From: a virus
Length of the DNA: 64,000 bases
IMG/VR virus record: IMGVR_UViG_3300036834_000211
Coordinates: 50,542-114,541 of that record
Strand: one strand, 5' to 3'
Positions 2,839-53,720 of this stretch are shown one piece after another. The translations under genes and the position numbers were made by a program. The notes under the pieces were generated by a model. The model was not told the DNA's origin and searched no databases. It worked only from the letters and a program-made list of their open reading frames with translations. Positions within the stretch are counted from its first letter, which is position 1; each line of letters begins with the position of its first letter.

Positions 2839-2987
2839 TCTCGTCGTCCTCTGGCAGGGCAATGGCGACCTTGCACGAATTGGATACGGTATACGGGGTC
2901 GAGGATCTCTACGACATGCTGGAGGTCCTGGAGGTGGATGCTCACAATAAGCGCATCGCGCAGGCTGCTCTGAACAAGAGAGACTAG
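2721..2987 (+). CDS. -1 frameshift extension of the tail chaperone (gpGT-like); slippery heptamer G GGT TTT at 2721-2727
   Basis: Heptamer is in the correct phase; the -1 frame stays open to 2987 and encodes ATLHELDTVYGVEDLYDMLEV, ending 1 nt before the TMP start. Confidence 0.75.
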   Translation, partial: GFFRARRGHPLDLGGLDDDGDFGADLVEYPNVPPTIAAIISSSSGRAMATLHELDTVYGVEDLYDMLEVLEVDAHNKRIAQAALNKRD

Positions 2988-2988
2988 G

Positions 2989-4716
2989 GTGGCTACGGTT
3001 ATAGATGAACTCGTGGTCCGCCTAGGCCTCGACCCGACCGACTTCGACGAGGGCGAGGCCAGGCTCATCGCATCCCTGCGCAGGATGGAGGCCGCGGCCC
3101 AGCGCGGTGGTCGCCAGGTGACCGACACGGTCGGCAGGGACACGATCGCCTTCTTCCGCGCAGTCGAGAACCCGATCTCCGGGCTGCGACGGACCTTCGA
3201 GGGCATGGTACTCCAGACCGAGCGCACCCGCGAGAGCCTGCGGAAGACCGGCGAGGAGGGCGAGGCGTCCGGCGAACGCGTGGCCCGCGGTACGTCTGCC
3301 GCGACCGCGGCGATGCGCGGCCTCGGCGTCGCCGGCCTTGCCGCCTTCGCTGCGTACGAGGCGCTGAGCAAGACGCTCGGTGCAGTCACCGACGTCGCCG
3401 GGCGAGTGTTCGCCACCGGGATAGGTGCCGGTGCTGCCGGCATGGGTATCACCCAGTTCGGTGCGATCAGCCAGGCGCTGTTCGCTGGTGGCAACGTACC
3501 CCAGGCCGAGACTCAGAACTGGCTGGCCCAGTACTCCGAAATGCAAGGGCAGGCTGCCAGGGGTATCAGCCCCGGCATTGGCTTCATAACCAACCTGAAC
3601 AAGCTCCTCAACCAGGAGACCTTCACTGGCATCGACCCATTCCGAGACTCGCCCGAGCAGATAATAACCAAGCTGGCCGCCCAGCTCTCCGCCATGCCGG
3701 AGGCCCGGGCGTACAGCGCCGGCAATGCCCTCGGGCTGAGCCGGCAGATGGTCTCGGGCCTGCGCGCGGAGGGTGAGCGACTCCCGGCCGACATCGCGGA
3801 GCAGCGACGCAGGGCCCCGACCGGCGAGGATCTGAGGGCCGCGCAGCGCCTGATTCTGGCCGAGGACAAACTGGCCACGGCGTGGGAGAAGCTCGAGCGC
3901 GACCTACTACTCAGCGGTATTGCCGAGGGCCTGACCAGGTTGGCGTCGTGGCTCGATACGCTGATAGCCCCCGGATCCAACGACCCCCGCGGGTTCCTGG
4001 GGCGCTTCTTCGGCGGATCTCGCCCGGAGTACGGAGAGGGGGCAGTGGTCAGCGGAGGCTCCGGGGGACAACTGTCGCAGGTCGTCGCCGGCGGCCAGGC
4101 CGACCAGTTGGTCGACTACATCATCAAGCACGAGGGTCACTCCCCCACCGGCGTCGTGAACAACCCGGGCAACATCAAGTTCACCGGCGCCGAGGGGCAG
4201 ACCGACTCCGGCGTCCGCGCCACCGACGGCGGCACCTTCGCGTCCTACCCGACGCCGGAGGCTGGCCGCGCCGCCATCGCCGCTCAGATCAATAGGGCCG
4301 CGAGCGGACTGTCCACTGCGTACGGTCCCAATCCTACCGTCAGCAGTTTCTTGAGCAAGTACAGCGGCGGGGGATACAGCGGCTCGGATCTGGCCATCGC
4401 ACCACCGCCACCGACGACTCCTCCTCCCGCTGGCAAGCCCAGTACGGTGCACGTACCCGACCCGCTGGACTGGATACTGGGGCCGGTCGACCCGGTGGCG
4501 AAGGCTCCCATTCCCGCCAAGCAGGCTGCCCTTCGCTCCATCCAGATGGCAAACGCGACGAATAACACGTCGACGACGCACAACTACGGTGACCAGCACG
4601 TCGACATCACCGTCAACGCCCCGACGAGAGAGGCCACCGCAATTGCCAACTCGGTCAGCGACCAGGTGAGGCAGCTTCCGCCCATGGCCGGACCGGCCAA
4701 CACGGGTCTGGCGTGA
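2989..4716 (+). CDS. Tape measure protein with C-terminal lysozyme-like domain
   Basis: N-terminal ATVIDELVVRLGLD; Ala/Gly-rich helical body; HEG...NNPGNIK...FASYPTPEAG motif near the C-terminus. Confidence 0.85.
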   Translation: MATVIDELVVRLGLDPTDFDEGEARLIASLRRMEAAAQRGGRQVTDTVGRDTIAFFRAVENPISGLRRTFEGMVLQTERTRESLRKTGEEGEASGERVARGTSAATAAMRGLGVAGLAAFAAYEALSKTLGAVTDVAGRVFATGIGAGAAGMGITQFGAISQALFAGGNVPQAETQNWLAQYSEMQGQAARGISPGIGFITNLNKLLNQETFTGIDPFRDSPEQIITKLAAQLSAMPEARAYSAGNALGLSRQMVSGLRAEGERLPADIAEQRRRAPTGEDLRAAQRLILAEDKLATAWEKLERDLLLSGIAEGLTRLASWLDTLIAPGSNDPRGFLGRFFGGSRPEYGEGAVVSGGSGGQLSQVVAGGQADQLVDYIIKHEGHSPTGVVNNPGNIKFTGAEGQTDSGVRATDGGTFASYPTPEAGRAAIAAQINRAASGLSTAYGPNPTVSSFLSKYSGGGYSGSDLAIAPPPPTTPPPAGKPSTVHVPDPLDWILGPVDPVAKAPIPAKQAALRSIQMANATNNTSTTHNYGDQHVDITVNAPTREATAIANSVSDQVRQLPPMAGPANTGLA

Positions 4717-29094: not shown

Positions 29095-29134
29095 AATCGT
29101 AGGGATGACGGCTTCATTTCCTAGGAGCCGTCTT

Positions 29135-29232
29135 TCCCCTTATTCCAGCCTTGATTTCGTCTGATCCGGTACCGAGCGGAGTCACCAACCACGAGGCCGG
29201 GAGGTTGCGAGGTCAAGGCTGGAATAAGGGGA
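29135..29232 (+). ncRNA. Candidate structured RNA / long stem-loop in the folE leader
   Basis: 20-bp perfect inverted repeat TCCCCTTATTCCAGCCTTGA / TCAAGGCTGGAATAAGGGGA, extended by G-U pairs, ending next to the GGAGG RBS. Confidence 0.5.
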
Positions 29233-29242
29233 GGGAGGTTGA

Positions 29243-29812
29243 ATGGATTGGGATCGAGTTCGCACCGGCGTAGTCGACATCCTGGTGGGTCTAGGCTGCG
29301 ACTTGAGTGATCCGAACTTCCTTGGCACCCCCGATCGGGTCGTCGAGTCTTACAAGGAGATCTTCGGCGGCCTCGACGAGGTGTCTCAGAAGATTGAGGA
29401 CATCCTGAGCAGTTCGTTCCCGTGTAGTCACGATCAGCTCGTCGTCGCACGAGGTATGGAGGTGTACGGGGTCTGTCCTCATCACCTACTACCGGTTCGG
29501 TACTCGGTCGTCGCGGCCTATCTCCCCGGGTCCGCACCCGGTGGACGCGTTGTTGGGTTGAGTAAGATCTATCGGCTCGTCAAGCTGCTGGCTGGTAGGC
29601 CCGTTCTACAGGAGCAGATGGTCAACGACGTTGCCGAGGCGTTGATGCACATCCCTGGTTGTCAAGGATCGGGGGTCGTCGCCCACGGCGAGCACTTGTG
29701 TGTTCGGATGCGCGGGGTACAGCAGGTCGACAGTGTCGTGACGACGAGCAGCCTGCGCGGTGTCTTCCTCAGTGATGGTGACGTCCGAGCCGAGTTCATG
29801 TCCCTGCGTTAA
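29243..29812 (+). CDS. folE: GTP cyclohydrolase I
   Basis: TPDRV, CPHHLLP, GLSKI, LQEQM, HLCVRMRGV, TTSSLRGVF. Confidence 0.95.
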   Translation: MDWDRVRTGVVDILVGLGCDLSDPNFLGTPDRVVESYKEIFGGLDEVSQKIEDILSSSFPCSHDQLVVARGMEVYGVCPHHLLPVRYSVVAAYLPGSAPGGRVVGLSKIYRLVKLLAGRPVLQEQMVNDVAEALMHIPGCQGSGVVAHGEHLCVRMRGVQQVDSVVTTSSLRGVFLSDGDVRAEFMSLR

Positions 29813-29825
29813 TGGGGGTTTCCTG

Positions 29826-30020
29826 ATGATAGTGACCTTGATTGTTTTCGTCTGCAGCCTATATTCTGCAGGTGAGTGCAAGAACGTTGAACATTCCGAG
29901 TCGTTCCCAAGTTTTGAGGCGTGTCAGTCCAGGATTGACGAGCTTCAGGAGCAGGACTCTCCGATGCCAGACGTGAAGGTAATTGGTTACACCTGTCGGG
30001 ATGTGACTGATGAAGACTGA
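29826..30020 (+). CDS. Small Cys-containing exported protein
   Basis: MIVTLIVFVCSL...C...FPSFEAC...YTC. Confidence 0.55.
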   Translation: MIVTLIVFVCSLYSAGECKNVEHSESFPSFEACQSRIDELQEQDSPMPDVKVIGYTCRDVTDED

Positions 30021-30696
30021 CGAGCGTTTCGTTGTGACGGGGGCGTCTTCTGGTCTTGGCAGGGAGATCTATCAGTACCTCACCTGTCGATATCAGACTT
30101 CTCAAGTCATTGGGGTGTCCCACCACGGGCCCGACATCGTGACCGACTTGTCCAATCAGATGGGCCTCCTGTCGGTAGTTGCGGAGCTGGTGTCGTGCTC
30201 ACCGCCACATCTGTCGAGACCCATCCGCTGCCTGGTGAACTGCGCTGGTGTGCTGCACCTCGGAGATGGCGACGATGCGAATGCGGATCAGATCTTCAAC
30301 GTTAACTTCTGGGCGCCGTATCACTTGTCGATGAATCTCAGGGAGTGCTTTGTGTCCGGTGAGAGCAGCGTCATAAACGTGGCCTCGGTCTCCGGTATGA
30401 TCGCCGATCCTGACACACCCGTCTATGGATCAAGTAAGGCTGCTCTCATCTCGCTGACTAAGAGCCTGGCGATTAAGTGGGCTCCCCACGTCCGAGTGAA
30501 TTGCATCTCTCCTGGATTCTTCGATACGAATCTAGTCCCCGAGCCCACCCCGCAGCATCTGATCGATCGAGTGCCGCTGGGCTTCGAGGCCTCGACTGGG
30601 ATGATAATCTCTGCGGTCGAGATGCTATTGAGCTGTCCGTACGTGACTGGTTCGAATGTCGTGGTTGATGGAGGACTGTCGTGCAGGGCAGTGTGA
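30010..30696 (+). CDS. Short-chain dehydrogenase/reductase
   Basis: TGASSGLG, NCAG, YGSSK catalytic YxxxK, VNCISPG, VDGG. Confidence 0.9.
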   Translation: MKTDERFVVTGASSGLGREIYQYLTCRYQTSQVIGVSHHGPDIVTDLSNQMGLLSVVAELVSCSPPHLSRPIRCLVNCAGVLHLGDGDDANADQIFNVNFWAPYHLSMNLRECFVSGESSVINVASVSGMIADPDTPVYGSSKAALISLTKSLAIKWAPHVRVNCISPGFFDTNLVPEPTPQHLIDRVPLGFEASTGMIISAVEMLLSCPYVTGSNVVVDGGLSCRAV

Positions 30697-31739
30697 CACC
30701 TCGGTACAGTTGCATCTTCATCTCGCGTGCCTGTCCGCGTGCCTGTTCGTACTGTCTCAGCAAGGACGTCCGCGGTGCAGGATCACTGCTCACACCGAAG
30801 GGGTGGGCCGATGCCTTGCGCATACTCGAGTCCCACGGCATCGTCTTCCACCTGATACTCGGGAACGAGCTGTTCACCTACCCGGATCCGGTGGGATTAG
30901 TCGAGGCGCTGAGGCCGTTCTGGGGCCGCTACGCAATCTACTCGACCTTCCCACCCGGCTATGCGAAGCGGTACCTGGACCCTTGCATCGAGGCGGGTCT
31001 GTACAACATCTCCGGTGGAGTGGACGTCCCGGCGGGTATGAAGACTGGCGATCGTCACGTTGATCGGAAGAGCAGTGAGGTGCTGTACTGGCTCGACTAC
31101 TGTCACACCCACGGTGTGCCAGACGTCCAGGCGACCGTGACGATCCACCGGCACAACTACGATAAGCTGGAGCCACTCCTGGACTACTGCACGGAGCGAG
31201 ACATCTGGGTCGGATGCAGTCTGGTTGAGGCGAGTCCCGATGGGAAGCACGACTTCTACGGTTCGGTCGACTCGATGCGCGACTGGTTGATTCCAGAGAA
31301 CGAGCGCGGCAGGTTTAGGAGTGCGATGTCCCGACTCGCCAGCCAGGTTTCGTCGGGTCGGTGGAAGATGCAGGTTCCACCGTCGTACTTCGAGGAGATG
31401 GGAGAGCGCGAGGTCGATCGAGATCCGTGGCACTGCAGCCTCCCTTTGCTGATCCACGTGGAGGAGGACGGTGTCCTCCGCGCGTGCTCCTACCGGGGTG
31501 GACTGGACGAGCGCTACACCGTGTTCGACCTGCGCGAGGGCGGCTCCTTGTCGATGTCGCGGTATATTGAGATGCAGCAGAGGAAGACGAGACAGTGCCC
31601 GGGCTGCGGGGTCGGCGGGGGAGCGTGGAGCTACTGGTACATGGCAGAAGAATGGCAGAAGGGCCTCGTCGAGCTGGGCGACCAGGTGTTCCAGCGGCAC
31701 GTTCCCGGTTACGAATTTGAGAGGACGAGGCAGAAATGA
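30693..31739 (+). CDS. Radical SAM enzyme with C-terminal Cys (SPASM/twitch-like) domain
   Basis: CPRACSYC (CxxxCxxC); C...DG.LRAC...CPGC. Confidence 0.85.
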   Translation: MTPRYSCIFISRACPRACSYCLSKDVRGAGSLLTPKGWADALRILESHGIVFHLILGNELFTYPDPVGLVEALRPFWGRYAIYSTFPPGYAKRYLDPCIEAGLYNISGGVDVPAGMKTGDRHVDRKSSEVLYWLDYCHTHGVPDVQATVTIHRHNYDKLEPLLDYCTERDIWVGCSLVEASPDGKHDFYGSVDSMRDWLIPENERGRFRSAMSRLASQVSSGRWKMQVPPSYFEEMGEREVDRDPWHCSLPLLIHVEEDGVLRACSYRGGLDERYTVFDLREGGSLSMSRYIEMQQRKTRQCPGCGVGGGAWSYWYMAEEWQKGLVELGDQVFQRHVPGYEFERTRQK

Positions 31740-32470
31740 GTGATCCTATCATCTACGTGTTGCTGAGCGGAGGGATCGACAGTGCCACCGCACTGGGCCT
31801 CGCCGTTGAGAAGGTGGACGAGGTGCGATGCGTTACGATCGACTACGGACAGCGTCACCGCCGCGAGATCGAGGCTGCCGCTGCCCTGGCTGAGATATAC
31901 GACTGCGAGTACGATCTCATCTCGATGCCGATGGGACGGACGATGCTGACCGATCCGACGATTGAGGTGCCCGACGTCGACTATAGCGAGATCATCGGCG
32001 TATCACCCACCTACGTCCCATTTCGCAATGGTCTCATGCTGTCGACGGTGGCTTCTTACATTGCGGGTCGGCATCACGACCTATCTCAAAGGTTTATCGA
32101 CCCTGGTGATGGCGGCATTGGAAAGCCACTCAATCCTGATTACGACCGAGACTGTTTGATCTACTGGGGGGCCCACGCTGAGGATGCAGCCGGCGGGGCG
32201 TATCCGGACTGCACTGCCGAGTTCGTGGGTGCGATGTCGTGCGCGATTGCCATCGCAACGTCGCATAAGGTTAGATTGGTGGCACCCTTCGTCGCGATGT
32301 CGAAGGCCGAGGTTGTCGAGCGAGGGTCCCTACTGGGCGTGTCGTATCGGTGGACGTGGAGTTGCTACAAAGGGGGTGAGAAGCACTGTGGGGTCTGTCC
32401 TACGTGTCGAGCTCGCAAGAGGGCCTTCCTCGATGCGGAGGTTGCGGATCCGACTGAGTACGCCGAGTAG
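31736..32470 (+). CDS. queC: 7-cyano-7-deazaguanine synthase
   Basis: LLSGGIDS, DYGQRH, TYVPFRN, YPDC, WSCY...CGVCPTC. Confidence 0.95.
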   Translation: MSDPIIYVLLSGGIDSATALGLAVEKVDEVRCVTIDYGQRHRREIEAAAALAEIYDCEYDLISMPMGRTMLTDPTIEVPDVDYSEIIGVSPTYVPFRNGLMLSTVASYIAGRHHDLSQRFIDPGDGGIGKPLNPDYDRDCLIYWGAHAEDAAGGAYPDCTAEFVGAMSCAIAIATSHKVRLVAPFVAMSKAEVVERGSLLGVSYRWTWSCYKGGEKHCGVCPTCRARKRAFLDAEVADPTEYAE

Positions 32471-32474
32471 CCGC

Positions 32475-32568
32475 CTGCGCGTGCCGTCCAGCTTGACAAA
32501 AGTATTTTGGGCTATCGCTATAGCCTCCAGGCTCCTCGCTGGGATGGACGAGCCTTAAAGACGATTTC
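32475..32568 (+). repeat. Dispersed ~94-bp structured repeat, copy 3
   Basis: CTGCGCGTGCCGTCCAGCTTGAC...TGGACGAGCCTTAAAGACGATTTC. Confidence 0.8.
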
Positions 32569-32581
32569 CTAGGAGAGCAGT

Positions 32582-32953
32582 ATGACTGAGACTTTTACTC
32601 GTTTGGTGGACAAGCATCATTCTCCATTGATTTTAAGGAAATATACGAAATGGGGCTTTCCTGTTTATGTGTCGATCATTGCCGATAACGATTTGAGTGA
32701 CTTTGATGAAGTGGTAGTTGGGTATGTTGAGGAACATAAGGTTGAGGGGTGGGTTAATGATATTCAGAGATTGCGTAATCTTGCTGGTGAATTAACTGAG
32801 TATTTGTGTCGAAAATATGATAAAACTGAGGGGGTAGGTGTGATGCTCTACGTCGACAAACTGTTTGTGGTCTCTCTATTCGGGGATCATATGAATCATG
32901 GTTCGTGCAAACAAGAATTCTATGATTTAGTAAAGATATCTGCCCATATTTGA
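32582..32953 (+). CDS. Hypothetical protein (AT-rich; possibly T-fold)
   Basis: 123 aa, GGAG RBS; fold guess is weak. Confidence 0.6.
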   Translation: MTETFTRLVDKHHSPLILRKYTKWGFPVYVSIIADNDLSDFDEVVVGYVEEHKVEGWVNDIQRLRNLAGELTEYLCRKYDKTEGVGVMLYVDKLFVVSLFGDHMNHGSCKQEFYDLVKISAHI

Positions 32954-32963
32954 GGTCACCAGG

Positions 32964-33623
32964 ATGAGAAAAGGGTACAAGCAGACATTAGCACATCGAA
33001 TTTCTCGATTGGCTTGGTTGAAAGATAGTGAGAAACTTAGACAAGCGATTGAGAAGTCGTCGACATCGCAGCGAGGTATTCGACGCCCTTGTATATCCGG
33101 AAGCAGACATCCAAATTATGGTAATATTGGTCATTTGTCTGATCGCAAGTGGGTGACTAATGGGATTGAGAATAAACGGATTTATATTAATGAAGAGATT
33201 CCATTGGGTTGGCGGTCTGGGATGTTATTAAAGAAGAAGAGTAGTAAAGTACACCGTTGTTTAGTTGGTTCATTTACGAATATTGAATGGGAGGGATTAA
33301 AGCGATACTACGATTTTAGATGTCATTGCTGTCGAAAACAAGAACCGGAGGTTAAACTTGAGAAGGATCATATAGTTCCGGTCAGTCTCGGGGGATTGAA
33401 TATTATTGAGAACATTCAGCCTCTTTGTGTTCGATGTAATCGGATTAAGAAAGCCCGTATTATTGCTTATAGAGTTAATAGGTTTCATAGTCTAGTTCGT
33501 ATGCGAGAACGACTAGAGTCTATTCTAAGGAAAAGAGCTGCGTTAGGTTTGCTTGATATTGAGTTTACTAGAATGCTGGCCTTCGAATTGGGGGTGCAGC
33601 TTCCGACGTCGATTGGTATTTGA
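32964..33623 (+). CDS. HNH homing endonuclease
   Basis: CHCC...DHIVPVSLGGLNIIENIQPLCVRCNRIK; SGSRHPNYG and KWVTNG DNA-binding motifs; AT-rich. Confidence 0.9.
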   Translation: MRKGYKQTLAHRISRLAWLKDSEKLRQAIEKSSTSQRGIRRPCISGSRHPNYGNIGHLSDRKWVTNGIENKRIYINEEIPLGWRSGMLLKKKSSKVHRCLVGSFTNIEWEGLKRYYDFRCHCCRKQEPEVKLEKDHIVPVSLGGLNIIENIQPLCVRCNRIKKARIIAYRVNRFHSLVRMRERLESILRKRAALGLLDIEFTRMLAFELGVQLPTSIGI

Positions 33624-34108
33624 TGTCTTCCATCTCCATCTGGGCACCCCACCCCGACGATGAGATAATCGGATGCTGGTCCGCCCTGCATCTAAAGCAC
33701 CGAGTTGATGACATATCGGTGATCTACTTGTCGGGTGTTGGTGATCCCGGTATAGAGAGATCACAGGCGAGGTTTGGTTTTCGATATCTGTACGCAGGAT
33801 ACGCGAATATGGAGGCGGCTGGGCCATATAGTACCGTCTTGGCACCCGATCCTGCGTCGGATTGGCACCCGCTGCATCAGCGGGTCGGTCAGGTGGCCCA
33901 GCATATGTTCCGCGACGGTAAGATCAGGCGTTTGATCATGTACACGACGAGGATGTTGGCTCCGTACGTATTCGAGGTGGCGAACCCAGCGGCGAAGCGA
34001 GCGGCGTTGAACGATTGCTATCCCGAGAAGAGCAGCCTTTGGGAGTCCGATCACAGGTTCTTCCTGTTCGAGGGCTACTGCTCCTGGTTGCGCCCCGGTG
34101 AAATATGA
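33620..34108 (+). CDS. PIG-L/LmbE-family deacetylase (compact)
   Basis: APHPDDEIIG metal-binding motif; DWHPLH. Confidence 0.85.
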   Translation: MMSSISIWAPHPDDEIIGCWSALHLKHRVDDISVIYLSGVGDPGIERSQARFGFRYLYAGYANMEAAGPYSTVLAPDPASDWHPLHQRVGQVAQHMFRDGKIRRLIMYTTRMLAPYVFEVANPAAKRAALNDCYPEKSSLWESDHRFFLFEGYCSWLRPGEI

Positions 34109-34145
34109 TTACGTAAGAAACGGCCAATGATCAGGAGAACATAAA

Positions 34146-35081
34146 ATGGGAAGACTAATAGTCGTACCTCAGTATCCCGCCAGACTTAGGTATCAAGAGT
34201 GGTATCCGCAGCGGATGCGAGAGTATGCCAATCACTTTGACGAGGTCATCTTCCTCAAGCCCGACACTGAAGCCCTGCTTCCACCATTGGGTGGATTCTC
34301 TCCCGTCGACTTGGCATTAGACTACGAGCTCTGTCAGATCAGGACGTACCTCGATCTGACACTCGAAGATGAAAACGTGCTGTTGCTGTGCGACCTCAGC
34401 TTCCCCGGGCTGTTCGCCTCCGTCCTGTACCACAAGCGCCCCAGTCGTTGCTTTACCATCTGCCACGGGACGTCGAGGAACAAGCACGACTACTTTGCCG
34501 ACTGTCGATCCAGTAAGTGGAGCGTCGAGGGCGGGCACAGTGAGCTGTTCGAAGGGGTATTCGTCGCGACTGAGTACCACCGCCGGAAGTTGGGTTGGTC
34601 CAACTGCCACGTCGTCTCCTTCCCACTCCCTCGAATTAGCGAACTGGGGGATCTTCACCCTTCCATCGTACGTGCGTACCGACCGAGTCGTATCGTCAGC
34701 GTTGCCCGACCCGGCCTGCAGAAGGTGAATCTGGAGGTCGAGCAGGAGATCGAGGAGATGACGGGCAGTCGGATCGTCAGGTTCCACGAGACGGGTGGAC
34801 GGACTTGGTCCGACTATTACTCGTTCCTGCGGGACGCTGACTTCCTGCTGGTCTCGTCGAGGGAGGAGACCTACGGCTACCAGGTAATTGACGCGCTATC
34901 GGTGGGTACGGTTCCCATTGCCCCCCGCGCGTTGTCGTACCCCGAGTTGCTGCCAGCTCGCTGTCTGTACGAACCCGGCAGTGCAGTGGATGCGGTCGCT
35001 GTGATGGAGCGGTATCCCACTTGTCCGGCCTTGTGGGAAGATACATTCATCAGGGACACTGCTCGTATAATGCAAGCATGA
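34146..35081 (+). CDS. GT-B glycosyltransferase (GT4-like)
   Basis: SREETYGYQVIDAL..GTVPIAPRALSYPELL nucleotide-sugar-binding motif. Confidence 0.85.
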   Translation: MGRLIVVPQYPARLRYQEWYPQRMREYANHFDEVIFLKPDTEALLPPLGGFSPVDLALDYELCQIRTYLDLTLEDENVLLLCDLSFPGLFASVLYHKRPSRCFTICHGTSRNKHDYFADCRSSKWSVEGGHSELFEGVFVATEYHRRKLGWSNCHVVSFPLPRISELGDLHPSIVRAYRPSRIVSVARPGLQKVNLEVEQEIEEMTGSRIVRFHETGGRTWSDYYSFLRDADFLLVSSREETYGYQVIDALSVGTVPIAPRALSYPELLPARCLYEPGSAVDAVAVMERYPTCPALWEDTFIRDTARIMQA

Positions 35082-36409
35082 CGAAGAGATTCATCTTCAT
35101 GCTCGACAGTGGTGCCTACTCGGTGTGGGCTCGATCCAATTCGAACCCGCATCGATTGGAACTGCGTCGTCGAGTGCTCGAGGCGTTGAAGGTCCACGGG
35201 AGCAAGAAGAGAGCGGCTGAAGAATTGGGTATCCCTCTAGGTCTGGTCCAGACCGTATCCAGTGACGAGGTCGAGCGCAGAGTGACGCTTGAGAACTATG
35301 CCGAATTCGTGAGTGGACACAGACACCTGTTCCGCGGTGGTGTGTGGAATTTTGACGTCATCGGGTCCGACAAGGGCAGTTATGAGAACTGGCTCGAGTT
35401 GCGGCGTCTCGGTGTGGACACCATCCCCGTGCACCACGTCGGCGATGACGTATCGTACTTGACGAAGTATCTCGACGAGTGCGAATTCGTCGGGATTGGT
35501 GCCATTGCCAAGATGGATACGAACAGTAGGATACACGGTCTCGATGACGTGTGGAAGTCTCACTTGTTGACGGGCGACGGATCCCCCCGCTGTCGAGTCC
35601 ACGGACTCGGCTTGACTGACACTTCGATCGTCTTGAGGTACCCTTGGTACTCCGTCGACAGTACGAAGACCATTGCTGCGGCTGCGTACGGTTCGGTCCT
35701 GATCCCAAACTTGAGTAGATCCGAGATCTCATACGACGACCTCATCCCCGTCTCGATAAGTAATCAGTCGAGGAGGGTCGAGTTGCCGAAGGGCAGGTCA
35801 TCGTCGAGTTCAAATTTCTACTTCCTTCCCCAGCGTACTCAAGAGGTACTGTACAAACTGACTGCGGATCTTGGATTTGGGATTAGTCGGACTCTAGAGG
35901 GTCGGGTCCTGCGATCGAAGATGACTTCTCGTAAGAGGCAAGATTCGGTATGGGTCAATGGATTGGGTATCGAAGCTGCTGTCGAAGTGCAGGAATCTGA
36001 GGTTTCGAACAACTTGTCGTCGAGTTGGCGGGCTAGGTATGCTTTTAATCTGCTGATGGTTGATCGGTTTGTCGAGCATTGGCGTCAACTCGGTCGAGCA
36101 ATTCGGATCTACAACGTGGCGGGCGGATCTCACGTGCTCGACGTCTTTACTTCTGTGTCGGACAGTCACCCGGCAAACAGGTCACTCGTCAGTTTCGCTA
36201 AGATGTCCGACAACCTGGTAACCAGATTGGAATGTGCGATCAATGGAGATACAGAGAGAAGTACTATTGTCGGCAATCAAGCTCGTACTGCCGGCGATGG
36301 CTCAGAAGGAACTCTTCGACCAGTCAAACAAGATCGCGTTCGCCGGCGGGAAGGTGGTGGCGTTCAACGACGCCGTCGCAATACTGCATCCCCTTCCTGG
36401 CGGCCTTGA
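35078..36409 (+). CDS. TGT-fold transglycosylase (DpdA-like) with an inserted HTH
   Basis: MLDSGAYS, FDVIG, IPVHH, RVHGLG, YPWYSVDS motifs; ATG at 35078 coupled to the GT stop; 3' end overlaps the clamp gene. Confidence 0.75.
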   Translation: MTKRFIFMLDSGAYSVWARSNSNPHRLELRRRVLEALKVHGSKKRAAEELGIPLGLVQTVSSDEVERRVTLENYAEFVSGHRHLFRGGVWNFDVIGSDKGSYENWLELRRLGVDTIPVHHVGDDVSYLTKYLDECEFVGIGAIAKMDTNSRIHGLDDVWKSHLLTGDGSPRCRVHGLGLTDTSIVLRYPWYSVDSTKTIAAAAYGSVLIPNLSRSEISYDDLIPVSISNQSRRVELPKGRSSSSSNFYFLPQRTQEVLYKLTADLGFGISRTLEGRVLRSKMTSRKRQDSVWVNGLGIEAAVEVQESEVSNNLSSSWRARYAFNLLMVDRFVEHWRQLGRAIRIYNVAGGSHVLDVFTSVSDSHPANRSLVSFAKMSDNLVTRLECAINGDTERSTIVGNQARTAGDGSEGTLRPVKQDRVRRREGGGVQRRRRNTASPSWRP

Positions 36410-37271
36410 CCTCGAGGGGGCAGTTGATGGTCAGCATCTGTATCGTCTCCTCAACAAGCTGTCTGCCGAAGTTGTCAATCTGACTGTTGACAACGACAAG
36501 ATCCACCTGCGCGCCGGTCGGAGTACGGCATCGTTCAACATACTGCCAGTGACACTACCCATCGACTCGGTCGACATGACGGGGCAGATGGTCGAGTTAC
36601 CCAAGACCTTCGTCGATCAATTGAAATGGGTCAGTTCGAGTTGTGCCCGCGACATGAGCCGACCTGCACTGACCTGCGTCCTGGTCGAGGGTGGATGGAT
36701 GCAGGCCAGCGATTCGTACCGAATCAGTCGAGTCCACCACGGTGACAGCACCACCGGTGCTTGGGACCTCCCTCGATTGATGCTTCCAATTACGCAGATC
36801 GAAGTGCTGGTGGACTATCCGGTCAAGCGCGTGGCACTGTCAGACGGAGGTGAATGGGCTCGATTTGAGACCGAGTCTGGGACCACGTTGTGCGCCAGGT
36901 CGCGGTCCGGTGAATTTCCGAACTTGGCGTCGATGTACGACGTTGAGGGGCATGAGATCCAGTTGACCACCGCACTGGCTCAGGTGATCGAGCGGGCTCA
37001 GATCTTCTCTCGGCGCGAACACTCGATCGACGAGGAGATTCGGATCTCCATGAGGCCCAACCAGATTACGATATCGGCGCAGTACGATGGTGGCAAGTTC
37101 TCCGAGGTGGCTAGATGCGAGGGAGCGGTCGACGGGATCGAGTTCGTGATCCACCCAAAATTCTTATCCGCCGCCCTCGAGTCCGGGACACGATGCGTAT
37201 TGGGTGAGAATAGAGTGAAGTTCAGTGGGACGGATTGGGACCACGTCGTCGCGTTGAAGGTAATGAAATGA
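36243..37271 (+). CDS. dnaN: DNA polymerase III beta-like sliding clamp
   Basis: ~342 aa; DMSRPALTCV, ASDSYRIS, GEFPN, IERAQIFS, HPKFL. Confidence 0.8.
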   Translation: MEIQREVLLSAIKLVLPAMAQKELFDQSNKIAFAGGKVVAFNDAVAILHPLPGGLDLEGAVDGQHLYRLLNKLSAEVVNLTVDNDKIHLRAGRSTASFNILPVTLPIDSVDMTGQMVELPKTFVDQLKWVSSSCARDMSRPALTCVLVEGGWMQASDSYRISRVHHGDSTTGAWDLPRLMLPITQIEVLVDYPVKRVALSDGGEWARFETESGTTLCARSRSGEFPNLASMYDVEGHEIQLTTALAQVIERAQIFSRREHSIDEEIRISMRPNQITISAQYDGGKFSEVARCEGAVDGIEFVIHPKFLSAALESGTRCVLGENRVKFSGTDWDHVVALKVMK

Positions 37272-37484: not shown

Positions 37485-38882
37485 ATGTCCGTTCGACCAC
37501 TCTTCGACCTGACTCCGGTTCTCGACGTGCCCGAGCGCGGGCGCACGCTGTCGTGCGTCAGCTGTGGCCTCTACCGGGATGTATTGACGCCGAGGATGCC
37601 GCCCCACGGCGAGAACCGTCGCTCCGTCATGGTCGTTGGCGAGGGACCCGGTGAGACTGAGGACGAGAGGGGCAGGCCCTGGGTCGGCCGCGCTGGTCGA
37701 CTACTGCGGATGGCGCTCGACGACTTCGGACTCGACCTGGATCGCGATTGCGTCTCGCTCAACAGCGTGAATTGCCGACCACCGTCCAACCGCGCGCCGA
37801 CCGGCCACGAGGTTGCCTGCTGCCGATCGAAGGTGGTGTCCCCCGCCGTCGAGCGGTACACTCCCCGAGTCATCCTGTTGATGGGTGGATCGGCCGTCAC
37901 CAGCGTGCTGGGGCCGCTGTGCCCCGAGGCGCTCGGGGCGTCCTCCGGCAAGAAGAAGGCGCCCTCCATTGGCAAGTGGCGCGGGATGACCATCCCCGTC
38001 CCGGAGTGGGGGGCCTGGGTGTGCCCCACGCACCACCCGTCCTACGTCCTGCGAGAGGAGAAGCGCCCCGAGGTCGACACCGTGTGGCGCCAGGATGTCC
38101 GCCGAGCGCTCAAGCTCCTCGATACTCCCGTCCCTCCTCCGGAGGACCTCAGGAGTGAGGTCGAGGTGCTTCGCGTCGAGGTCGACATCCTGCGTGCGAT
38201 CTACCACGCCCACGATGCTCAGTTACTGTCGTACGACTATGAGACGACCGGGCTGCGAGCCTCCCTCCACAAGATCGTGTGCGTCTCGTTTGCGACCTCG
38301 GCCGACAAGGCTTATGCGTTCATGATGCCCGAGTCGGGGCCGATCCGAGGAGCCTGGTCGAAGCTGATGGTCAGGCACCGGGTGGGCAAGATCTCGCACC
38401 ACATGAAGTTTGAGAACGAGTGGACGATCGAGCACTTCGAGGTCGAGGAGATCAACTGGGCGTGGGACTCGATGCTCGCGGCGCACGTCGTCGACAACCG
38501 GGTTGGGATCTGCGGTCTTAAGCACCAGGCATTCTTGAACTTTGGGATCCGGAGCTGGGACGGTCTGATCGCCCCGTACCTGGAATCCGTCGACGAGAAG
38601 GACCCGACCGCGCCCAATCGAATCTGGGAGTTCATTGAGCGCTATGGCGAGGAGGAGTGCCTGATCTACTGTGGGATCGACTCGCTCGTGGCCTTCCGAC
38701 TGGCGATGAGGCAGAGGGAGATTATCGGTGTTGAAGCTCACCATGAAGGGGCTGATCAATCTGCTCAATCTAGGTTATCACATCGAGGTGGAGAAGCCAT
38801 CGGAGGAGGACAAGGTGGAGCGTCGCTCCCCTCGGATGACCATGTGGTATCTAGACGGGGAGACGGGGCTCGGCTCGATTAG
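37485..38882 (+). CDS. Family-4 UDG domain fused to 3'-5' exonuclease (N-terminal part of a split PolA)
   Basis: CVSCGL, VGEGPGETED, CRPPSNRAP, HPSY; then YDYETTGL, DSMLAAH, YCGIDS exonuclease motifs. Confidence 0.85.
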   Translation: MSVRPLFDLTPVLDVPERGRTLSCVSCGLYRDVLTPRMPPHGENRRSVMVVGEGPGETEDERGRPWVGRAGRLLRMALDDFGLDLDRDCVSLNSVNCRPPSNRAPTGHEVACCRSKVVSPAVERYTPRVILLMGGSAVTSVLGPLCPEALGASSGKKKAPSIGKWRGMTIPVPEWGAWVCPTHHPSYVLREEKRPEVDTVWRQDVRRALKLLDTPVPPPEDLRSEVEVLRVEVDILRAIYHAHDAQLLSYDYETTGLRASLHKIVCVSFATSADKAYAFMMPESGPIRGAWSKLMVRHRVGKISHHMKFENEWTIEHFEVEEINWAWDSMLAAHVVDNRVGICGLKHQAFLNFGIRSWDGLIAPYLESVDEKDPTAPNRIWEFIERYGEEECLIYCGIDSLVAFRLAMRQREIIGVEAHHEGADQSAQSRLSHRGGEAIGGGQGGASLPSDDHVVSRRGDGARLD

Positions 38883-38922
38883 TATCAAATCGATCGACGT
38901 GACGCCTGAGAAGGATGGATAG
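38743..38922 (+). CDS. Small ORF between the two polymerase halves
   Basis: 59 aa, in an alternative frame to the 3' tail of the exo gene; stop overlaps the start region of the pol gene. Confidence 0.4.
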   Translation: MKGLINLLNLGYHIEVEKPSEEDKVERRSPRMTMWYLDGETGLGSISIKSIDVTPEKDG

Positions 38923-40300
38923 CCTCCTCGACGCCTACCAACTGTTTCACGACGGTGCGCTGGCACTCGCCGAGGTCGAGCGTGCTGGTATTAGAATTGA
39001 TACTGAATATTGTCGTGAGAAGCTCGCCTGGTTGGACGAGCAGAGCAGCCGGTATGAACGACGCCTGAGATTGAGCGAGCTGGGCCGGGCCTGGTTGGCT
39101 CGCTTTGGCAGCGCCGCGAGCTTCGGCAGTGGGCCCCAGCTCCAGGCCGTCCTCTACGCCGACCTGGGGGTCAAGCCGTTCAAGCAGACTGCGAGCGGCC
39201 AGGACAGCGTGGATGAGGAGTCTCTCAGGCAGACCGGGGTGGACGGGATCAACCACCTGCTCCGGTTGCGTAGCCTCAAGAAGATGAGTGACGTCCTCGG
39301 GGGGTTTCTCAGGTATCAGATCGCCGGGTATCTCTACCCCACGTTCTGCCTGCACACGGTGGTGACCTACCGGTCGTCCAGCCTCAAGCCAAACCTTCAG
39401 AACGTTCCAGTACGCGACAAGGAGCAGATGGACATCTGCCGGCGTGCGATCGTGCCGTCGCCCGGCAACGTGATACTGGAGATCGACAAGAGCGGCATCG
39501 AGGTATGCGTGGCGGCTTGCTACCACAAGGACCCGACGATGCTGGAATATCTCCATGATCCTGCGTCGGATATGCACTCTGATGCAGCCAAGAAGTTGTT
39601 CTTTCTCGACGGTGCGGTCAGCGACCTGAAGAAGCTGGATGGGTTCTCGCCCGTGCTGCGTCAGGCCGGTAAGAATGCGTTCATATTCCCGGAGTTCTAC
39701 GGTGACTACTACGAGTCGTGCGCCCCCGGCATCGCCTGCGGTTGGTGCAAGCTGCCCCGCATCGGCGACTGGACGGACTACGACGGAGCCTTGCTCGATG
39801 GGGTACCGATAGCTCGGCACCTGCGTCGGCACGACGTCTCCGGCTTGGTGGACTTCACCGAACACGTGAGGAAGGTCGAGGACTGGCTGTGGAACGAGCG
39901 CTTCCCCGTATATTCTAGGTGGCGGAAGGATTGGTACGCCAGGTATCAACGGAGGGGTAGCTTTCGGATGAAGACCGGGTTCGAGTGCAGCGGCGTCATG
40001 GGGAGGAACGAGGCGGTGAACTATCCCGTCCAAGGGCCCGCGTTCCACCTGCTGCTGAAGACATTGATCCTGGTCGTGCAACGCATCCGGAGTTGGCCGT
40101 CCAAGGTAGTCAGTCAGGTACACGACTCGTTGCTCATCGACACACCGCTCGACCGGGTTCCGGCGCTGGTGGAGATGGTCAGGCGCATCGATGCGGAGGA
40201 GCTGCCGCGGATCTGGCCGTGGATCATCGTGCCGCTGCGTGATGAGGCGAAGGTGAGCGAGGTGGACGGGAGCTGGGCAAATATGAGGGTGGTGGAATGA
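38915..40300 (+). CDS. Family A DNA polymerase, polymerase domain
   Basis: TYRSSSLKPNLQNVP, EIDKSGIE (motif A), RQAGKNAFIFPEFYG (motif B), NYPVQG, QVHDSL (motif C). Confidence 0.9.
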   Translation: MDSLLDAYQLFHDGALALAEVERAGIRIDTEYCREKLAWLDEQSSRYERRLRLSELGRAWLARFGSAASFGSGPQLQAVLYADLGVKPFKQTASGQDSVDEESLRQTGVDGINHLLRLRSLKKMSDVLGGFLRYQIAGYLYPTFCLHTVVTYRSSSLKPNLQNVPVRDKEQMDICRRAIVPSPGNVILEIDKSGIEVCVAACYHKDPTMLEYLHDPASDMHSDAAKKLFFLDGAVSDLKKLDGFSPVLRQAGKNAFIFPEFYGDYYESCAPGIACGWCKLPRIGDWTDYDGALLDGVPIARHLRRHDVSGLVDFTEHVRKVEDWLWNERFPVYSRWRKDWYARYQRRGSFRMKTGFECSGVMGRNEAVNYPVQGPAFHLLLKTLILVVQRIRSWPSKVVSQVHDSLLIDTPLDRVPALVEMVRRIDAEELPRIWPWIIVPLRDEAKVSEVDGSWANMRVVE

Positions 40301-51061: not shown

Positions 51062-51496
51062 ATGATTGTCGTGACCGCCAGTCGTTTCCACGATTTTTCT
51101 TATGGACATCGGGTATTTGGGCACGAGAACAAGTGTGCTCACCCCCACGGCCACAATGCCAGGGCCCACTTCAGCTGCTCTGCTCCAGAGCAGGACAGCA
51201 TCGGTCGAATCATTGACTTTGGTGTGATGAAGAGCCTCCTGTGCCAGTGGCTCGAGGACAACTGGGACCACAAGTTCTTGATTTGGGTGAGTGATCCCTC
51301 GTCCTGGGATCTGATCAAGTTGTATCCCGGAGGGGTGGTGAGCGTCCCTTTCAATCCCACCGCTGAGAACATGGCTCGGCACCTGTTGGAAGTCGTTGGT
51401 CCGCGGTGCCTGGTCGGTACGGGTGTCGAGTTGATTGAGGTCGAGGTCGAAGAGACTAGGAAGTGCAGTGCATCTGCCAGGATAGAGAAGGAGTAG
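51062..51496 (+). CDS. queD: 6-carboxy-5,6,7,8-tetrahydropterin synthase
   Basis: FSYGHR, CAHPHGHN, IDFG, WDHKFL, NPTAENMA, EET. Confidence 0.95.
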   Translation: MIVVTASRFHDFSYGHRVFGHENKCAHPHGHNARAHFSCSAPEQDSIGRIIDFGVMKSLLCQWLEDNWDHKFLIWVSDPSSWDLIKLYPGGVVSVPFNPTAENMARHLLEVVGPRCLVGTGVELIEVEVEETRKCSASARIEKE

Positions 51497-51497
51497 A

Positions 51498-52478
51498 TTG
51501 ATGAGCCATCGTACGTCTGCCAAGGTCGTCCTCGACTCGATCACCCCTCACGGTTCCGAGACGCGCCTGATGTCGATGTATGTCATCTTCCCCAAGATGA
51601 TCATTGGGGAACGCAACCGACATCGGGCGTTTAGCCTCTCCGATCGCTCCTCGCGCGCCGTACCACCCGAGAAGCTGATCGACGAGGTAGTTCTCGATCC
51701 GGCGATGCCGGCGAAGTTTCGCCGCCGATCTAAGGGGATGGGTGGTGGGGAGGAGTTGGTCGGTGACGAACTGGTCGAGGCTCAGGAGCGCTGGAGGAGG
51801 GCTGCCTTCACGGCGGCGGGATGGGCGGGCATTGCGGCGAAGGCTGGTGAGGCCAAGGAGACTGCGAACCGACCGATAGATCCGTACATTCGAATGCACT
51901 CGCTGATGACTGCGACTCGCGACTGCTGGCTGAACTTCTTCGGCCTGCGCCTCGACGAGGGAGCCGACCCGACGATCCAGGTACTGGCTCAGCGGTGCTT
52001 CGAGGTGTACAAAGACTCGACGCCAAAACTCCTGGAGCCGGGCGAGTGGCACCTGCCGTTCGTGGATGACGATGAGGTGTTTCAGAACTCGATGGGACCG
52101 GATGTCTGGACTATCGACGATAGACCTGGGAAGGGGCTGACCGTGATCGAGGTCGCGAAGCGTCTATCCGCCGCACGCTGCGCCCATCTGTCTTACAACG
52201 ATCTGGAGACCGGTAAGCGGATGACGGTCGATCGTGCTCTCTTGATCTACGATAAGCTGGTCACATCTCGTCCGCTTCACGCTAGTCCGTGCGAGCACCA
52301 GGCCACACCGGACGAATGGCGATCTTATGCTATGAAGCGCGAAGAGGTTGATGCGGGAACGCAGTATGGTGAGTGGGTACATCGGTCGGAGCACGGTAAT
52401 CTCCTCGGCTGGCGCCAGGCTCGCAAGATGTTGCCTGGCGAGGCCGTCGCCCCGCTCCCGGAGGGGTATGAATTGTGA
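51498..52478 (+). CDS. thyX: FAD-dependent thymidylate synthase (phage ThyX-like)
   Basis: RHRAFS..RSSRAVP, KETANR, NFFGLR, SAARCA, HASPCEHQATP. Confidence 0.8.
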   Translation: MMSHRTSAKVVLDSITPHGSETRLMSMYVIFPKMIIGERNRHRAFSLSDRSSRAVPPEKLIDEVVLDPAMPAKFRRRSKGMGGGEELVGDELVEAQERWRRAAFTAAGWAGIAAKAGEAKETANRPIDPYIRMHSLMTATRDCWLNFFGLRLDEGADPTIQVLAQRCFEVYKDSTPKLLEPGEWHLPFVDDDEVFQNSMGPDVWTIDDRPGKGLTVIEVAKRLSAARCAHLSYNDLETGKRMTVDRALLIYDKLVTSRPLHASPCEHQATPDEWRSYAMKREEVDAGTQYGEWVHRSEHGNLLGWRQARKMLPGEAVAPLPEGYEL

Positions 52479-52491
52479 TGGAGGAGATTCG

Positions 52492-53313
52492 ATGTTTGGT
52501 CTAAATCAAATTACTACGGCTAAGGATTTTGTGGGTCAGACTCCCTACACGTTGAAGGTTACTTCGATCTTCTATACATTGCAGGGTGAGGGCCCCTTTT
52601 CGGGACATCCTTGCGTATTCGTGCGCTTGTCCCACTGTCACCTCCAGTGCAAGTTCTGCGACACGTGGTTCGACAGTGGTGATGTGATGTCCTTCCCTGG
52701 TATCGTCGGAGCGGCTCGAGGATCCGTGCGACGATTTAATGAGATGCACGGTGGGTCAATTGACGAACTACCGGACTTGTTCGTCATTACGGGCGGTGAA
52801 CCGCTGCTCCAGCCCAATCTAGTGCGGTTTATTGATTACTTATCATTGAGTGGTATCCGAGTGCAGATTGAGACGACTGGGACGATCGATGTTGATGTCC
52901 CGCGCGATGTGGGTGCGTACGTGGTGTGCAGTCCGAAGCTCAATGCTCGTGGATTGCCGTTGCACATCTCACTGTCGATGCTCGAACGTGTTGACTGCAT
53001 GAAGTGCGTCGTGTCCAAGACTGATCTACTTTACAATGACATCCCATTCTTGGTACTGTATTGGCGAGATCAGCATCCCGATCGGCCAGTCTACGTGTCA
53101 CCAATGAACACCTACCTCAAGCCACCAGTCAAGCTGGGGGTTGATGGGTCGCTCGAGGGTCGAAGTGAGACGGACGAGCGCATTTCATTCTGGACGCCCG
53201 GACTGCTTGATCTTGAGGCAAATCGGGTGAACCACGAGTACGCAGCCGAATTGGCACTGCGCCATCGAGTGCGACTGACCCTGCAGACGCACCTGTACGC
53301 GAGTCTGCCGTGA
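52492..53313 (+). CDS. queE: 7-carboxy-7-deazaguanine synthase (radical SAM)
   Basis: IFYTLQGEG, FVRLSHCHLQCKFCDT, TGGEPLLQ, IETTG, SPK, LQTH. Confidence 0.95.
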   Translation: MFGLNQITTAKDFVGQTPYTLKVTSIFYTLQGEGPFSGHPCVFVRLSHCHLQCKFCDTWFDSGDVMSFPGIVGAARGSVRRFNEMHGGSIDELPDLFVITGGEPLLQPNLVRFIDYLSLSGIRVQIETTGTIDVDVPRDVGAYVVCSPKLNARGLPLHISLSMLERVDCMKCVVSKTDLLYNDIPFLVLYWRDQHPDRPVYVSPMNTYLKPPVKLGVDGSLEGRSETDERISFWTPGLLDLEANRVNHEYAAELALRHRVRLTLQTHLYASLP

Positions 53314-53720
53314 ACCGGATCGTATTGACTTGGGAGCAGATCGACGATGCGTGTGGTAGATTGGCGCGCCTGCTGAGGAATCCGAAGCCATCGGCCATCG
53401 TCGCGGTCCTGCGTGGGGGACTGGTGCCGGCTACGATACTGTCGTATGCCCTCGGTGCCCCGATCGTCGACGTCGTCGATCCCAGGCGATCCTCGACCTA
53501 TCGTCCCGGTCGCGACCTTCTCGTTGTTGATGACGTGTGCGATACGGGTGCTACACTCGAGCATCTGCGTTCGTACTTCCCCAATGCGCGATTTGCAGCG
53601 TTGTACACAAAGCCAATTGGCGAGGCTTTGTGCAGTTTTGTCGTCCATCCCTTCATCATCCCCGTGCCTCAGGATACGTGGATCACGTTCCCGTGGAGCC
53701 CGAATGACCATCTCGAGTGA
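53310..53720 (+). CDS. Purine phosphoribosyltransferase (Gpt-like)
   Basis: RGGLVPA, LVVDDVCDTGAT PRPP loop, WITFPW. Confidence 0.9.
   Translation: MNRIVLTWEQIDDACGRLARLLRNPKPSAIVAVLRGGLVPATILSYALGAPIVDVVDPRRSSTYRPGRDLLVVDDVCDTGATLEHLRSYFPNARFAALYTKPIGEALCSFVVHPFIIPVPQDTWITFPWSPNDHLE

Follow-up and report, generated by a model that had tools for sequence, protein, structure and literature searches.

We examined a 64,000-nucleotide stretch (hereafter the window) of the IMG/VR virus record IMGVR_UViG_3300036834_000211, positions 50,542 to 114,541, for genes that may modify viral DNA with 7-deazaguanine. The window forms the right-hand 64 kb of the 114.5-kb record, which is rated 94% complete. 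Between window positions 29243 and 36409, nine genes were found on the + strand, encoding GTP cyclohydrolase I (folE), a short-chain dehydrogenase/reductase (SDR), a radical S-adenosylmethionine (SAM) enzyme, QueC, a 123-residue open reading frame (ORF), an HNH endonuclease, a PIG-L-like hydrolase, a glycosyltransferase (GT) and a DpdA-like transglycosylase. A second group on the same strand (51062-53720) consists of queD, a ThyX-type thymidylate synthase gene, queE and a phosphoribosyltransferase gene (Table 1). Pfam, NCBIfam, PHROG and structure searches of the ORFs agreed with the genes named, and with the coordinates given, by the initial annotation, including its placement of queD and queE at 51-53 kb. 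The coupling that it had described along the run was also borne out, as the SDR and radical SAM reading frames overlap by 16 nt, a shared ATGA joins both radical SAM to queC and GT to dpdA, and the HNH stop and PIG-L-like start share TGATG. None of 50,697 phage records matched the 8-kb region in a megablast search.

Table 1. Genes of the two groups in the window, with the main evidence for each assignment (E-values unless stated; pLDDT and pTM are AlphaFold model confidence scores).
Feature	Position	Strand	Evidence
folE, GTP cyclohydrolase I, first step to 7-deazaguanine	29243..29812	+	Pfam PF01227 GTP_cyclohydroI 1.3e-45
Classical short-chain dehydrogenase/reductase, lineage-specific accessory	30010..30696	+	adh_short 5e-26
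Second radical SAM enzyme, one twitch-like auxiliary Cys cluster, lineage-specific accessory	30681..31739	+	Radical_SAM 1.2e-9
queC, canonical preQ0 (7-cyano-7-deazaguanine) synthase	31736..32470	+	Pfam QueC 1.7e-50
T-fold protein (predicted), 123 aa, conserved core member of module	32582..32953	+	AlphaFold/Foldseek
HNH homing endonuclease, mobile insert	32964..33623	+	HNH_5 1.5e-13
Small PIG-L/LmbE-like zinc hydrolase, 162 aa, putative N-acetyl-sugar deacetylase	33620..34108	+	Pfam PIG-L 1.1e-4
GT-B glycosyltransferase, GT4-like, 311 aa	34146..35081	+	AlphaFold pLDDT 84, pTM 0.84
DpdA1-like DNA guanine transglycosylase	35078..36409	+	phrog_887 2.2e-32
queD, 6-carboxytetrahydropterin synthase	51062..51496	+	PTPS 6.2e-24; phrog_2389 2.6e-46
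queE, 7-carboxy-7-deazaguanine synthase	52348..53313	+	phrog_2076 1e-43
Purine-type phosphoribosyltransferase	53310..53720	+	Pribosyltran 6.4e-14; phrog_8995 2.5e-24

FolE, QueD, QueE, QueC and DpdA were all found with the motifs of their families. The folE product scored 165.9 bits against NCBIfam NF006826 (cut-off 162), and the CxxxHGH motif of the queD product (CAHPHGH) holds the Cys that marks it as QueD rather than DpdL. For the queE product, the best NCBIfam families were QueE models (1.5e-21, under their cut-offs) with a match starting at residue 67, and the true start probably lies near 52540. The QueC of the window carries SGGxDS, YGQxHxxE, VPxRN, YPDC and the zinc motif C-x7-C-x2-C-x2-C. 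It thereby has the full canonical signature (SGGxDS, YxQxHxxE, VPxRN, YPDC and a Cys zinc motif) as defined in PMC13329287, with a first Cys spacing of x7 rather than x8. The phosphoribosyltransferase probably serves in the salvage of released guanine. This function recurs beside Que genes elsewhere, with a phosphoribosyltransferase domain fused to FolE in one related viral locus (L018) and an XGPRT gene adjoining QueE in phage BUCT-ZZ01. The QueF family (PF14489) gave no match anywhere in the 114.5-kb genome at E <= 1, so that the absence of QueF noted initially holds for the whole genome; ArcS and Gat-QueC, likewise reported as absent, were not searched for.

The DpdA-like protein was upheld as such through its PHROG family and through tblastn, in which it was 28-39% identical to the annotated DpdA/TGT genes of phages 9g, Vid5 and Seuratvirus-type phages. 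Its start was moved from the TTG at 35021 to the ATG at 35078, the most likely start, which overlaps the GT stop. The protein is basic (isoelectric point, pI, 9.6) and keeps LDSGAYS, HGLG and YPWYSVDS, which contain the DSG and SVDS motifs; it gave no Pfam TGT match, and its profile found none in the PDB. A 46-residue helix-turn-helix-like insert directly after LDSGAYS was found in none of 12 relatives, and a 55-residue Arg-rich C-terminal tail was also noted, the frame of which overlaps the sliding-clamp gene (36234-37271) by 176 nt.

The GT was then characterized through its structural model, which has two Rossmann-like domains. At E <= 1e-3 this GT-B-fold model had 337 matches in the PDB, headed by GT4 enzymes, and the best Foldseek matches (E 1e-8 to 1e-6) were GlgM, MshA, BshA, PglA, PimA and a tetrahydrobiopterin glucosyltransferase. 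The GlcNAc transferases MshA and BshA are thus among the nearest solved structures, in line with the analogy to these enzymes drawn initially. The family comprises at least 328 clusters. Some homologues carry a precomputed PF00534 match, and the family is conserved along its whole length with 50 invariant columns. The donor-site motif of GT4 enzymes is E-x7-E, and the corresponding invariant stretch of the phage family, EETYGYQVxDA, reads E-x7-D. Only two matches were found among 185,579 prokaryotic genomes, and by sequence the family appears to be nearly phage-only.

Directly upstream of the GT, the small hydrolase showed both metal-binding motifs of PIG-L enzymes. PHxDDE and HPxH are invariant among 13 homologues (P10, H11, D13, D14 and E15; H83, P84 and H86), and the profile built from these homologues matched diacetylchitobiose deacetylases in the PDB (E 2e-3) with both metal motifs aligned. 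The homologue in Xanthomonas phage BUDD was recovered with an hhalign probability of 98.7%. The PIG-L assignment made initially was supported by the retained motifs and by the profile match.

The 123-residue ORF, which the initial annotation had passed over without a label, proved to be a further core member of the module. It has no sequence-family match in Pfam, PHROG or NCBIfam, and the profile of its homologues had no PDB sequence match. The AlphaFold model (pLDDT 85) has the beta-beta-alpha-alpha-beta-beta core of the T-fold superfamily, with GTP cyclohydrolase I (GCH-I) as the best Foldseek matches and VIA-align Z-scores of 12.1 for GCH-I, 9.4 for the QueF-like structure 5jyx and 8.6 for QueF 4f8b. 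The model indicates that the protein has a T-fold, as do the purine/pterin-binding FolE, QueF and QueF-like proteins. With a mean column identity of 70%, it is better conserved than any other member of the module, and its 429 metagenomic homologues are all unnamed; in relatives its gene adjoins those for PIG-L and GT. An assignment as QueF was ruled out, as the protein belongs to no QueF sequence family and has no conserved thioimide Cys. The only near-invariant Cys of the family, C109, lies in the last helix and is missing in locus L009, and none stands at the QueF/QueF-like thioimide position. A tblastn search with the T-fold protein found no match in cultured phages, and its profile matched no ORF of phage BUDD.

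Between the T-fold and PIG-L-like genes lies the HNH gene, which had been counted as part of the run. No HNH gene occupies this position in the relatives examined; in locus L002, the gap is filled by an unrelated inorganic-pyrophosphatase-like ORF (L002:9091-9543). Because of this absence and its low GC content, the HNH gene is considered a mobile insert that stands outside the pathway. The GC content is 0.40 for the HNH gene and 0.39 for the T-fold gene, compared to 0.60 for the window, and at third codon positions (32582-33623) the values are 0.35 and 0.39, respectively. This composition would fit a homing event that brought a foreign T-fold copy along. That the T-fold gene is itself part of an HNH mobile element was ruled out, as relatives have the T-fold gene without the HNH gene.

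We sought to assess the conservation of this module by scanning viral contigs with the GT, which recovered 59 loci; clustering at 90% identity placed these in 30 lineages, whose neighbours were counted within 10 kb. Among these lineages, PIG-L was found in 28, QueE in 27, a QueC-family protein in 20, the T-fold protein in 19, a radical SAM enzyme in 17, the SDR in 8 and a methyltransferase in 6. In both lineages that lack PIG-L, the locus is cut by the contig end. Co-conservation of the GT, PIG-L and SDR genes with dpdA and que genes had been put forward as a test of the initial proposal; the outcome was positive for GT and PIG-L, across unrelated phage backbones. The order folE, radical SAM, queC-like, T-fold, PIG-L, GT, dpdA was kept at 25-60% amino acid identity in 18 loci, which collapse to 13 distinct GT lineages when clustered at 90% identity. 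In this phage type, to which the window belongs, synteny extends over the entire replication region, and adjacency there is therefore weak evidence. A second phage type, with a 1080-residue polymerase and contigs of up to 223 kb, consistently had PIG-L, GT and QueE across all loci examined; QueC-like and T-fold proteins were present in some of these, and a 455-477-residue transglycosylase with the DSGG motif in 4 of 5 records searched. In a 211-kb contig from a Woesearchaeota metagenome-assembled genome bin (BPGB01000002.1; L071), T-fold, PIG-L and GT genes are consecutive and accompanied by a polymerase and a DSGG transglycosylase; this is probably a large virus contig misplaced in an archaeal bin. 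A conserved 172-residue ORF was also noted directly 3' of the GT in lineage-B contigs.

The GT family was also encountered in 18 GenBank phage records, which fall into six groups: Xanthomonas BUDD/X1, Burkholderia BCSR5, Acidovorax ACP17, Sinorhizobium Phosso, Synechococcus BUCT-ZZ01 and Pseudomonas PA5oct-like phages. One representative of each group was inspected, and in all six the GT sits among FolE/QueD/QueE. A DSGG-motif transglycosylase of at least three subfamilies was found beside or near the GT in five of the six groups, with none recognised in Phosso. The BUDD-type DpdA belongs to phrog_10773, which is also the family found in KVP40-like Vibrio phages, and occurs in 71 phage records, four of which have the GT (BUDD, X1, ACP17 and BUCT-ZZ01). 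The Menderavirus Moby, the nearest backbone to BUDD, has the polymerase, FolE, a QueC-like protein, DpdA and QueE, but no GT. Since the GT is nested inside DpdA-positive phages with at least three DpdA subfamilies, it appears to be an optional tailoring step rather than a chance neighbour. In Stenotrophomonas phage Moby (MN095772), an inositol-3-phosphate synthase gene (2454-3704) takes the place of GT and PIG-L between FolE and QueC-like/DpdA/QueE, which hints at another, cyclitol-type tailoring of deazaguanine. A conserved 120-127-residue ORF (phrog_17812) adjoins the GT in PA5oct, Phosso and BUCT-ZZ01 (L068:8141-8518, L069:7642-8025 and L070:7635-7997).

The radical SAM and SDR genes were found to be less constant. 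The SDR retains TGASSGLG (TGxxxGxG) and YGSSK (YxxxK) intact, and its best NCBIfam matches are generic, with pteridine reductases among them. The radical SAM protein has the conserved motifs CPRxCxYC, HC, RxCGY and CPGC (four C-terminal Cys). Its profile matched SkfB in the PDB (1.3e-6), and its Atlas neighbours are unnamed viral radical SAM clusters. A close-relative scan with this protein found no match, and the relatives were reached through the GT. All of the lineages with the radical SAM or SDR gene belong to the phage type of the window, and PIG-L and GT are kept without both in the large-phage lineage and in phage BUDD. Being lineage-specific, the two enzymes do not appear to be needed to create the sugar acceptor, which speaks against the initial suggestion that they make the handle for glycosylation. 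A class I SAM methyltransferase was noted between the radical SAM and QueC-like genes in several relatives (L008:5843-6517, L009:4470-5162 and L002:6498-7175), and in L009 it stands in place of the radical SAM gene.

Another difference was noted in the QueC slot, where a canonical QueC is found in the window phage only. The relatives all have in its stead a QueC-like protein, some 180 residues long, that keeps SGGxDS, YGQxHxxE, VPSRN and FPDC and wholly lacks the zinc-binding Cys motif (L002-L018, e.g. L008:6519-7067). This zinc-less protein is unlike canonical QueC, QatC and Cap9 as described in PMC13329287.

Taken together, we interpret the locus as a 7-deazaguanine DNA-modification system of the DpdA type to which a sugar-tailoring module has been added, and its product would be a sugar-decorated, probably amino-sugar, 7-deazaguanine in DNA (probability roughly 0.55). 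By homology, FolE, QueD and QueE would convert GTP to 7-carboxy-7-deazaguanine (CDG), from which the canonical QueC would form preQ0, and the DpdA1-like enzyme would swap guanine in phage DNA for the deazaguanine, with the phosphoribosyltransferase probably recycling the guanine that is released. The T-fold protein may bind the deazaguanine and prepare or present an acceptor group at C7. The GT4-like enzyme would add a hexose, most likely an N-acetylhexosamine from a UDP-sugar, and the PIG-L-like zinc hydrolase would take off the acetyl group to leave a free, positively charged amine. Further tailoring of the sugar or base could be carried out by the twitch radical SAM enzyme and the SDR. In virion DNA, such an amino-sugar 7-deazaguanine would be expected to block restriction enzymes and other nucleases. 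The three tailoring proteins (GT, PIG-L-like and T-fold) have pI values of 5.6-6.4 in the window, with medians of 5.8-7.1 for their families, and this neutral-to-acidic range compared to the basic DpdA weakly suggests action on the free base before insertion. More tentatively, and at somewhat less than even odds, the same reading may extend beyond this phage: a phage-only trio of T-fold, mini-LmbE and GT4-like proteins, joined to at least three DpdA subfamilies and widespread in soil and water phages, would place an amino-sugar 7-deazaguanine in phage DNA, and related versions with the GT only would explain the G modification of the jumbo phage PA5oct and the failed reconstitution for ACP17.

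Several observations weigh against this interpretation. Which sugar is added, to which atom and at what stage is all deduced from genes. As single sequences, the two central enzymes match their families under the cut-offs, with 18.1 bits against 26.4 for Glycos_transf_1 (2e-3) and 23.1 against 28.2 for PIG-L, the latter over residues 9-49 only. The PIG-L-like family does not retain the Asp of the HPDH motif that is usual in such enzymes, and its proteins have only 150-165 residues compared to 267-272 in solved members. A recognisable PIG-L is missing in five of the six cultured GT groups, where the amino-sugar part may not hold. The canonical QueC of the window means that its end product could differ from that of its relatives, all of which have the zinc-less form. 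Because preQ0 has no obvious C7 hydroxyl or amine and no QueF is present, the acceptor for the sugar is left unexplained. Finally, the GT is always near the DNA polymerase too, and its adjacency to Que genes partly reflects the replication module.

This last point also underlies a different explanation, in which the GT and PIG-L-like proteins act on some other target, such as a protein, a different DNA base or a sugar of the host envelope, and are co-located through an early replication module. The position near the polymerase in every lineage and the full synteny of the replication region in the phage type of the window are what such co-location would produce. Nevertheless, we consider it unlikely, as no fewer than eight unrelated backbones have the GT adjoining Que genes, in varying gene orders and together with three or more DpdA subfamilies, and the GT stop overlaps the dpdA start. 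The Menderavirus closest to BUDD retains the polymerase with FolE, QueC-like, DpdA and QueE genes and does so without the GT. Moreover, a ThyA-type pyrimidine hydroxymethylase, which could supply another DNA acceptor, was not found in the genome. Glycosylation of a hydroxymethyl-pyrimidine accordingly has no support, and the ThyX-like gene is an ordinary member of the thymidylate synthase family. The tailored deazaguanine could also lie outside DNA, either as a free glycosylated metabolite resembling huimycin or as a base inserted in tRNA. Huimycin does provide a case of a free preQ0-derived base glycosylated by a GT, and the neutral-to-acidic pI of the tailoring proteins resembles that of small-molecule enzymes. 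Against this stand a DpdA-family gene with a basic product, translationally coupled to the GT, and the position of the module in a phage replication operon. The nearest relatives of this DpdA are the DpdA1 proteins of phages reported to carry deazaguanines in DNA (PMC6884629). The described metabolite clusters carry regulators and transporters and no insertion enzymes, whereas neither regulators nor transporters were seen here, and we judge a non-DNA product to be very unlikely.

It may instead be asked whether the substituent at C7, be it a nitrile, an amide or a carboxylate, is what the PIG-L-like and T-fold proteins act on, so that the base is the known dADG, dCDG or dG+ and the GT-B protein is non-catalytic or unrelated. 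PIG-L-family enzymes are amide hydrolases, and the T-fold includes QueF and QueF-like proteins, which act on the preQ0 nitrile; the unusually small size of the PIG-L-like protein, its lack of the HPDH Asp and the E-x7-D reading of the GT motif would also be accommodated. On the other hand, the conservation of the GT over its full length, with its invariant columns, is as expected of an active enzyme, and the GT is found without PIG-L in several phages and never without Que genes. The T-fold protein has no Cys at the thioimide position of QueF and QueF-like enzymes, its one near-invariant Cys lying elsewhere and being lost in L009. To our knowledge, all characterised PIG-L members hydrolyse N-acyl-glucosamine amides, which also speaks against this explanation, and we regard it as improbable. 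Also rejected for the window was coupling of CDG to the freed sugar amine by a zinc-less QueC-like protein acting as a ligase, in the manner of mycothiol synthesis; this scheme fits the relatives and not the canonical QueC found here.

We also compared the sugar-tailoring interpretation with known systems. The DpdA1 phage systems (9g, CAjan, Vid5 and iggy; Cui 2023, PMC10516641; Hutinet 2019, PMC6884629) have the same FolE, QueD, QueE, QueC and DpdA as the window, where the genes likewise lie in the replication region and the transglycosylase is nearest to the DpdA1 type (identity about 30%). Unlike these systems, the window adds the T-fold, PIG-L-like, GT4-like, twitch radical SAM and SDR proteins, none of which are among the described tailoring enzymes QueF, Gat-QueC/ArcS, DpdL, DpdM and DpdN, and its DpdA has the 46-residue insert after the DSG motif. 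The pairing of a GT4-type GT (by Foldseek) with an adjoining hydrolase that has PIG-L metal motifs recalls MshA/MshB and BshA/BshB of mycothiol and bacillithiol synthesis. However, the phage GT has only 11-15% sequence identity to MshA/BshA, the hydrolase has about 160 residues compared to 230-300 in MshB/BshB, the acceptor cannot be inositol phosphate or malate, and no thiol-pathway ligase is present. The huimycin and dapiramicin pathways also join preQ0 genes to a GT, and the class I methyltransferase of several window relatives adds to this likeness (PMC7439116). They differ in being actinomycete clusters for free metabolites, with no DpdA, the sugar on N2 and no deacetylase. Huimycin, as N-acetylglucosamine on a preQ0-derived base, nevertheless provides a chemical precedent (PMC7439116). 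The T4-type DNA glucosyltransferases are likewise phage GT-B enzymes that decorate a non-canonical DNA base against restriction (PMC13216743). Their sugar is placed on 5-hydroxymethylcytosine, with the pyrimidine handle made at the nucleotide level, whereas the window has no ThyA-type hydroxymethylase, and the GT families differ.

A few further features were noted around the locus. A hairpin of about 30 bp that looks perfect lies directly 5' of folE (29125-29241), with its 3' arm entering the GGAGG ribosome-binding site. Its minimum free energy is -80 kcal/mol (z-score -5.65), and none of 200 shuffles fold equally well. A preQ1-type riboswitch at this position was ruled out, as no Rfam family was significant. 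The 172-residue ORF 5' of folE gave weak winged-helix leads only in an Atlas search. Two ORFs (37485-38882 and 38915-40300) together encode the family A DNA polymerase. Relatives of the same type share this split, whereas a single gene encodes the 1080-residue polymerase of the second phage type.

The eight described 7-deazaguanine DNA bases bear small groups only and no sugar, and the sugar-bearing phage DNA bases in the literature we found are pyrimidines. Our literature search found no description of a sugar-bearing 7-deazaguanine in DNA, in agreement with the initial view that an amino-sugar deazaguanine matches no described phage derivative. The elements that are new here are the predicted T-fold identity of the 123-residue protein, the HNH gene as an insert, a nearly phage-only GT that co-occurs with PIG-L and QueE in metagenomic lineages and adjoins FolE/QueD/QueE in six cultured phage groups, and the accessory status of the radical SAM and SDR enzymes. 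PA5oct DNA is known to resist cleavage at G-containing restriction sites, and the modification was not identified there (PMC12191111). Expression of dpdL and dpdA of ACP17 in E. coli gave no dDG, and the authors noted that other enzymes may be needed (PMC10516641). If true, our interpretation would explain both the G modification of PA5oct and the failed ACP17 reconstitution. Because culturable phages (Xanthomonas BUDD and X1, Burkholderia BCSR5, Acidovorax ACP17 and Pseudomonas PA5oct) are among the carriers of the GT family, the prediction is testable in them. A deazapurine bearing a sugar or amino sugar would represent a new chemical class of DNA base, would provide new enzymes for DNA labelling, and would bear on restriction, CRISPR and glycosylase-based defence.

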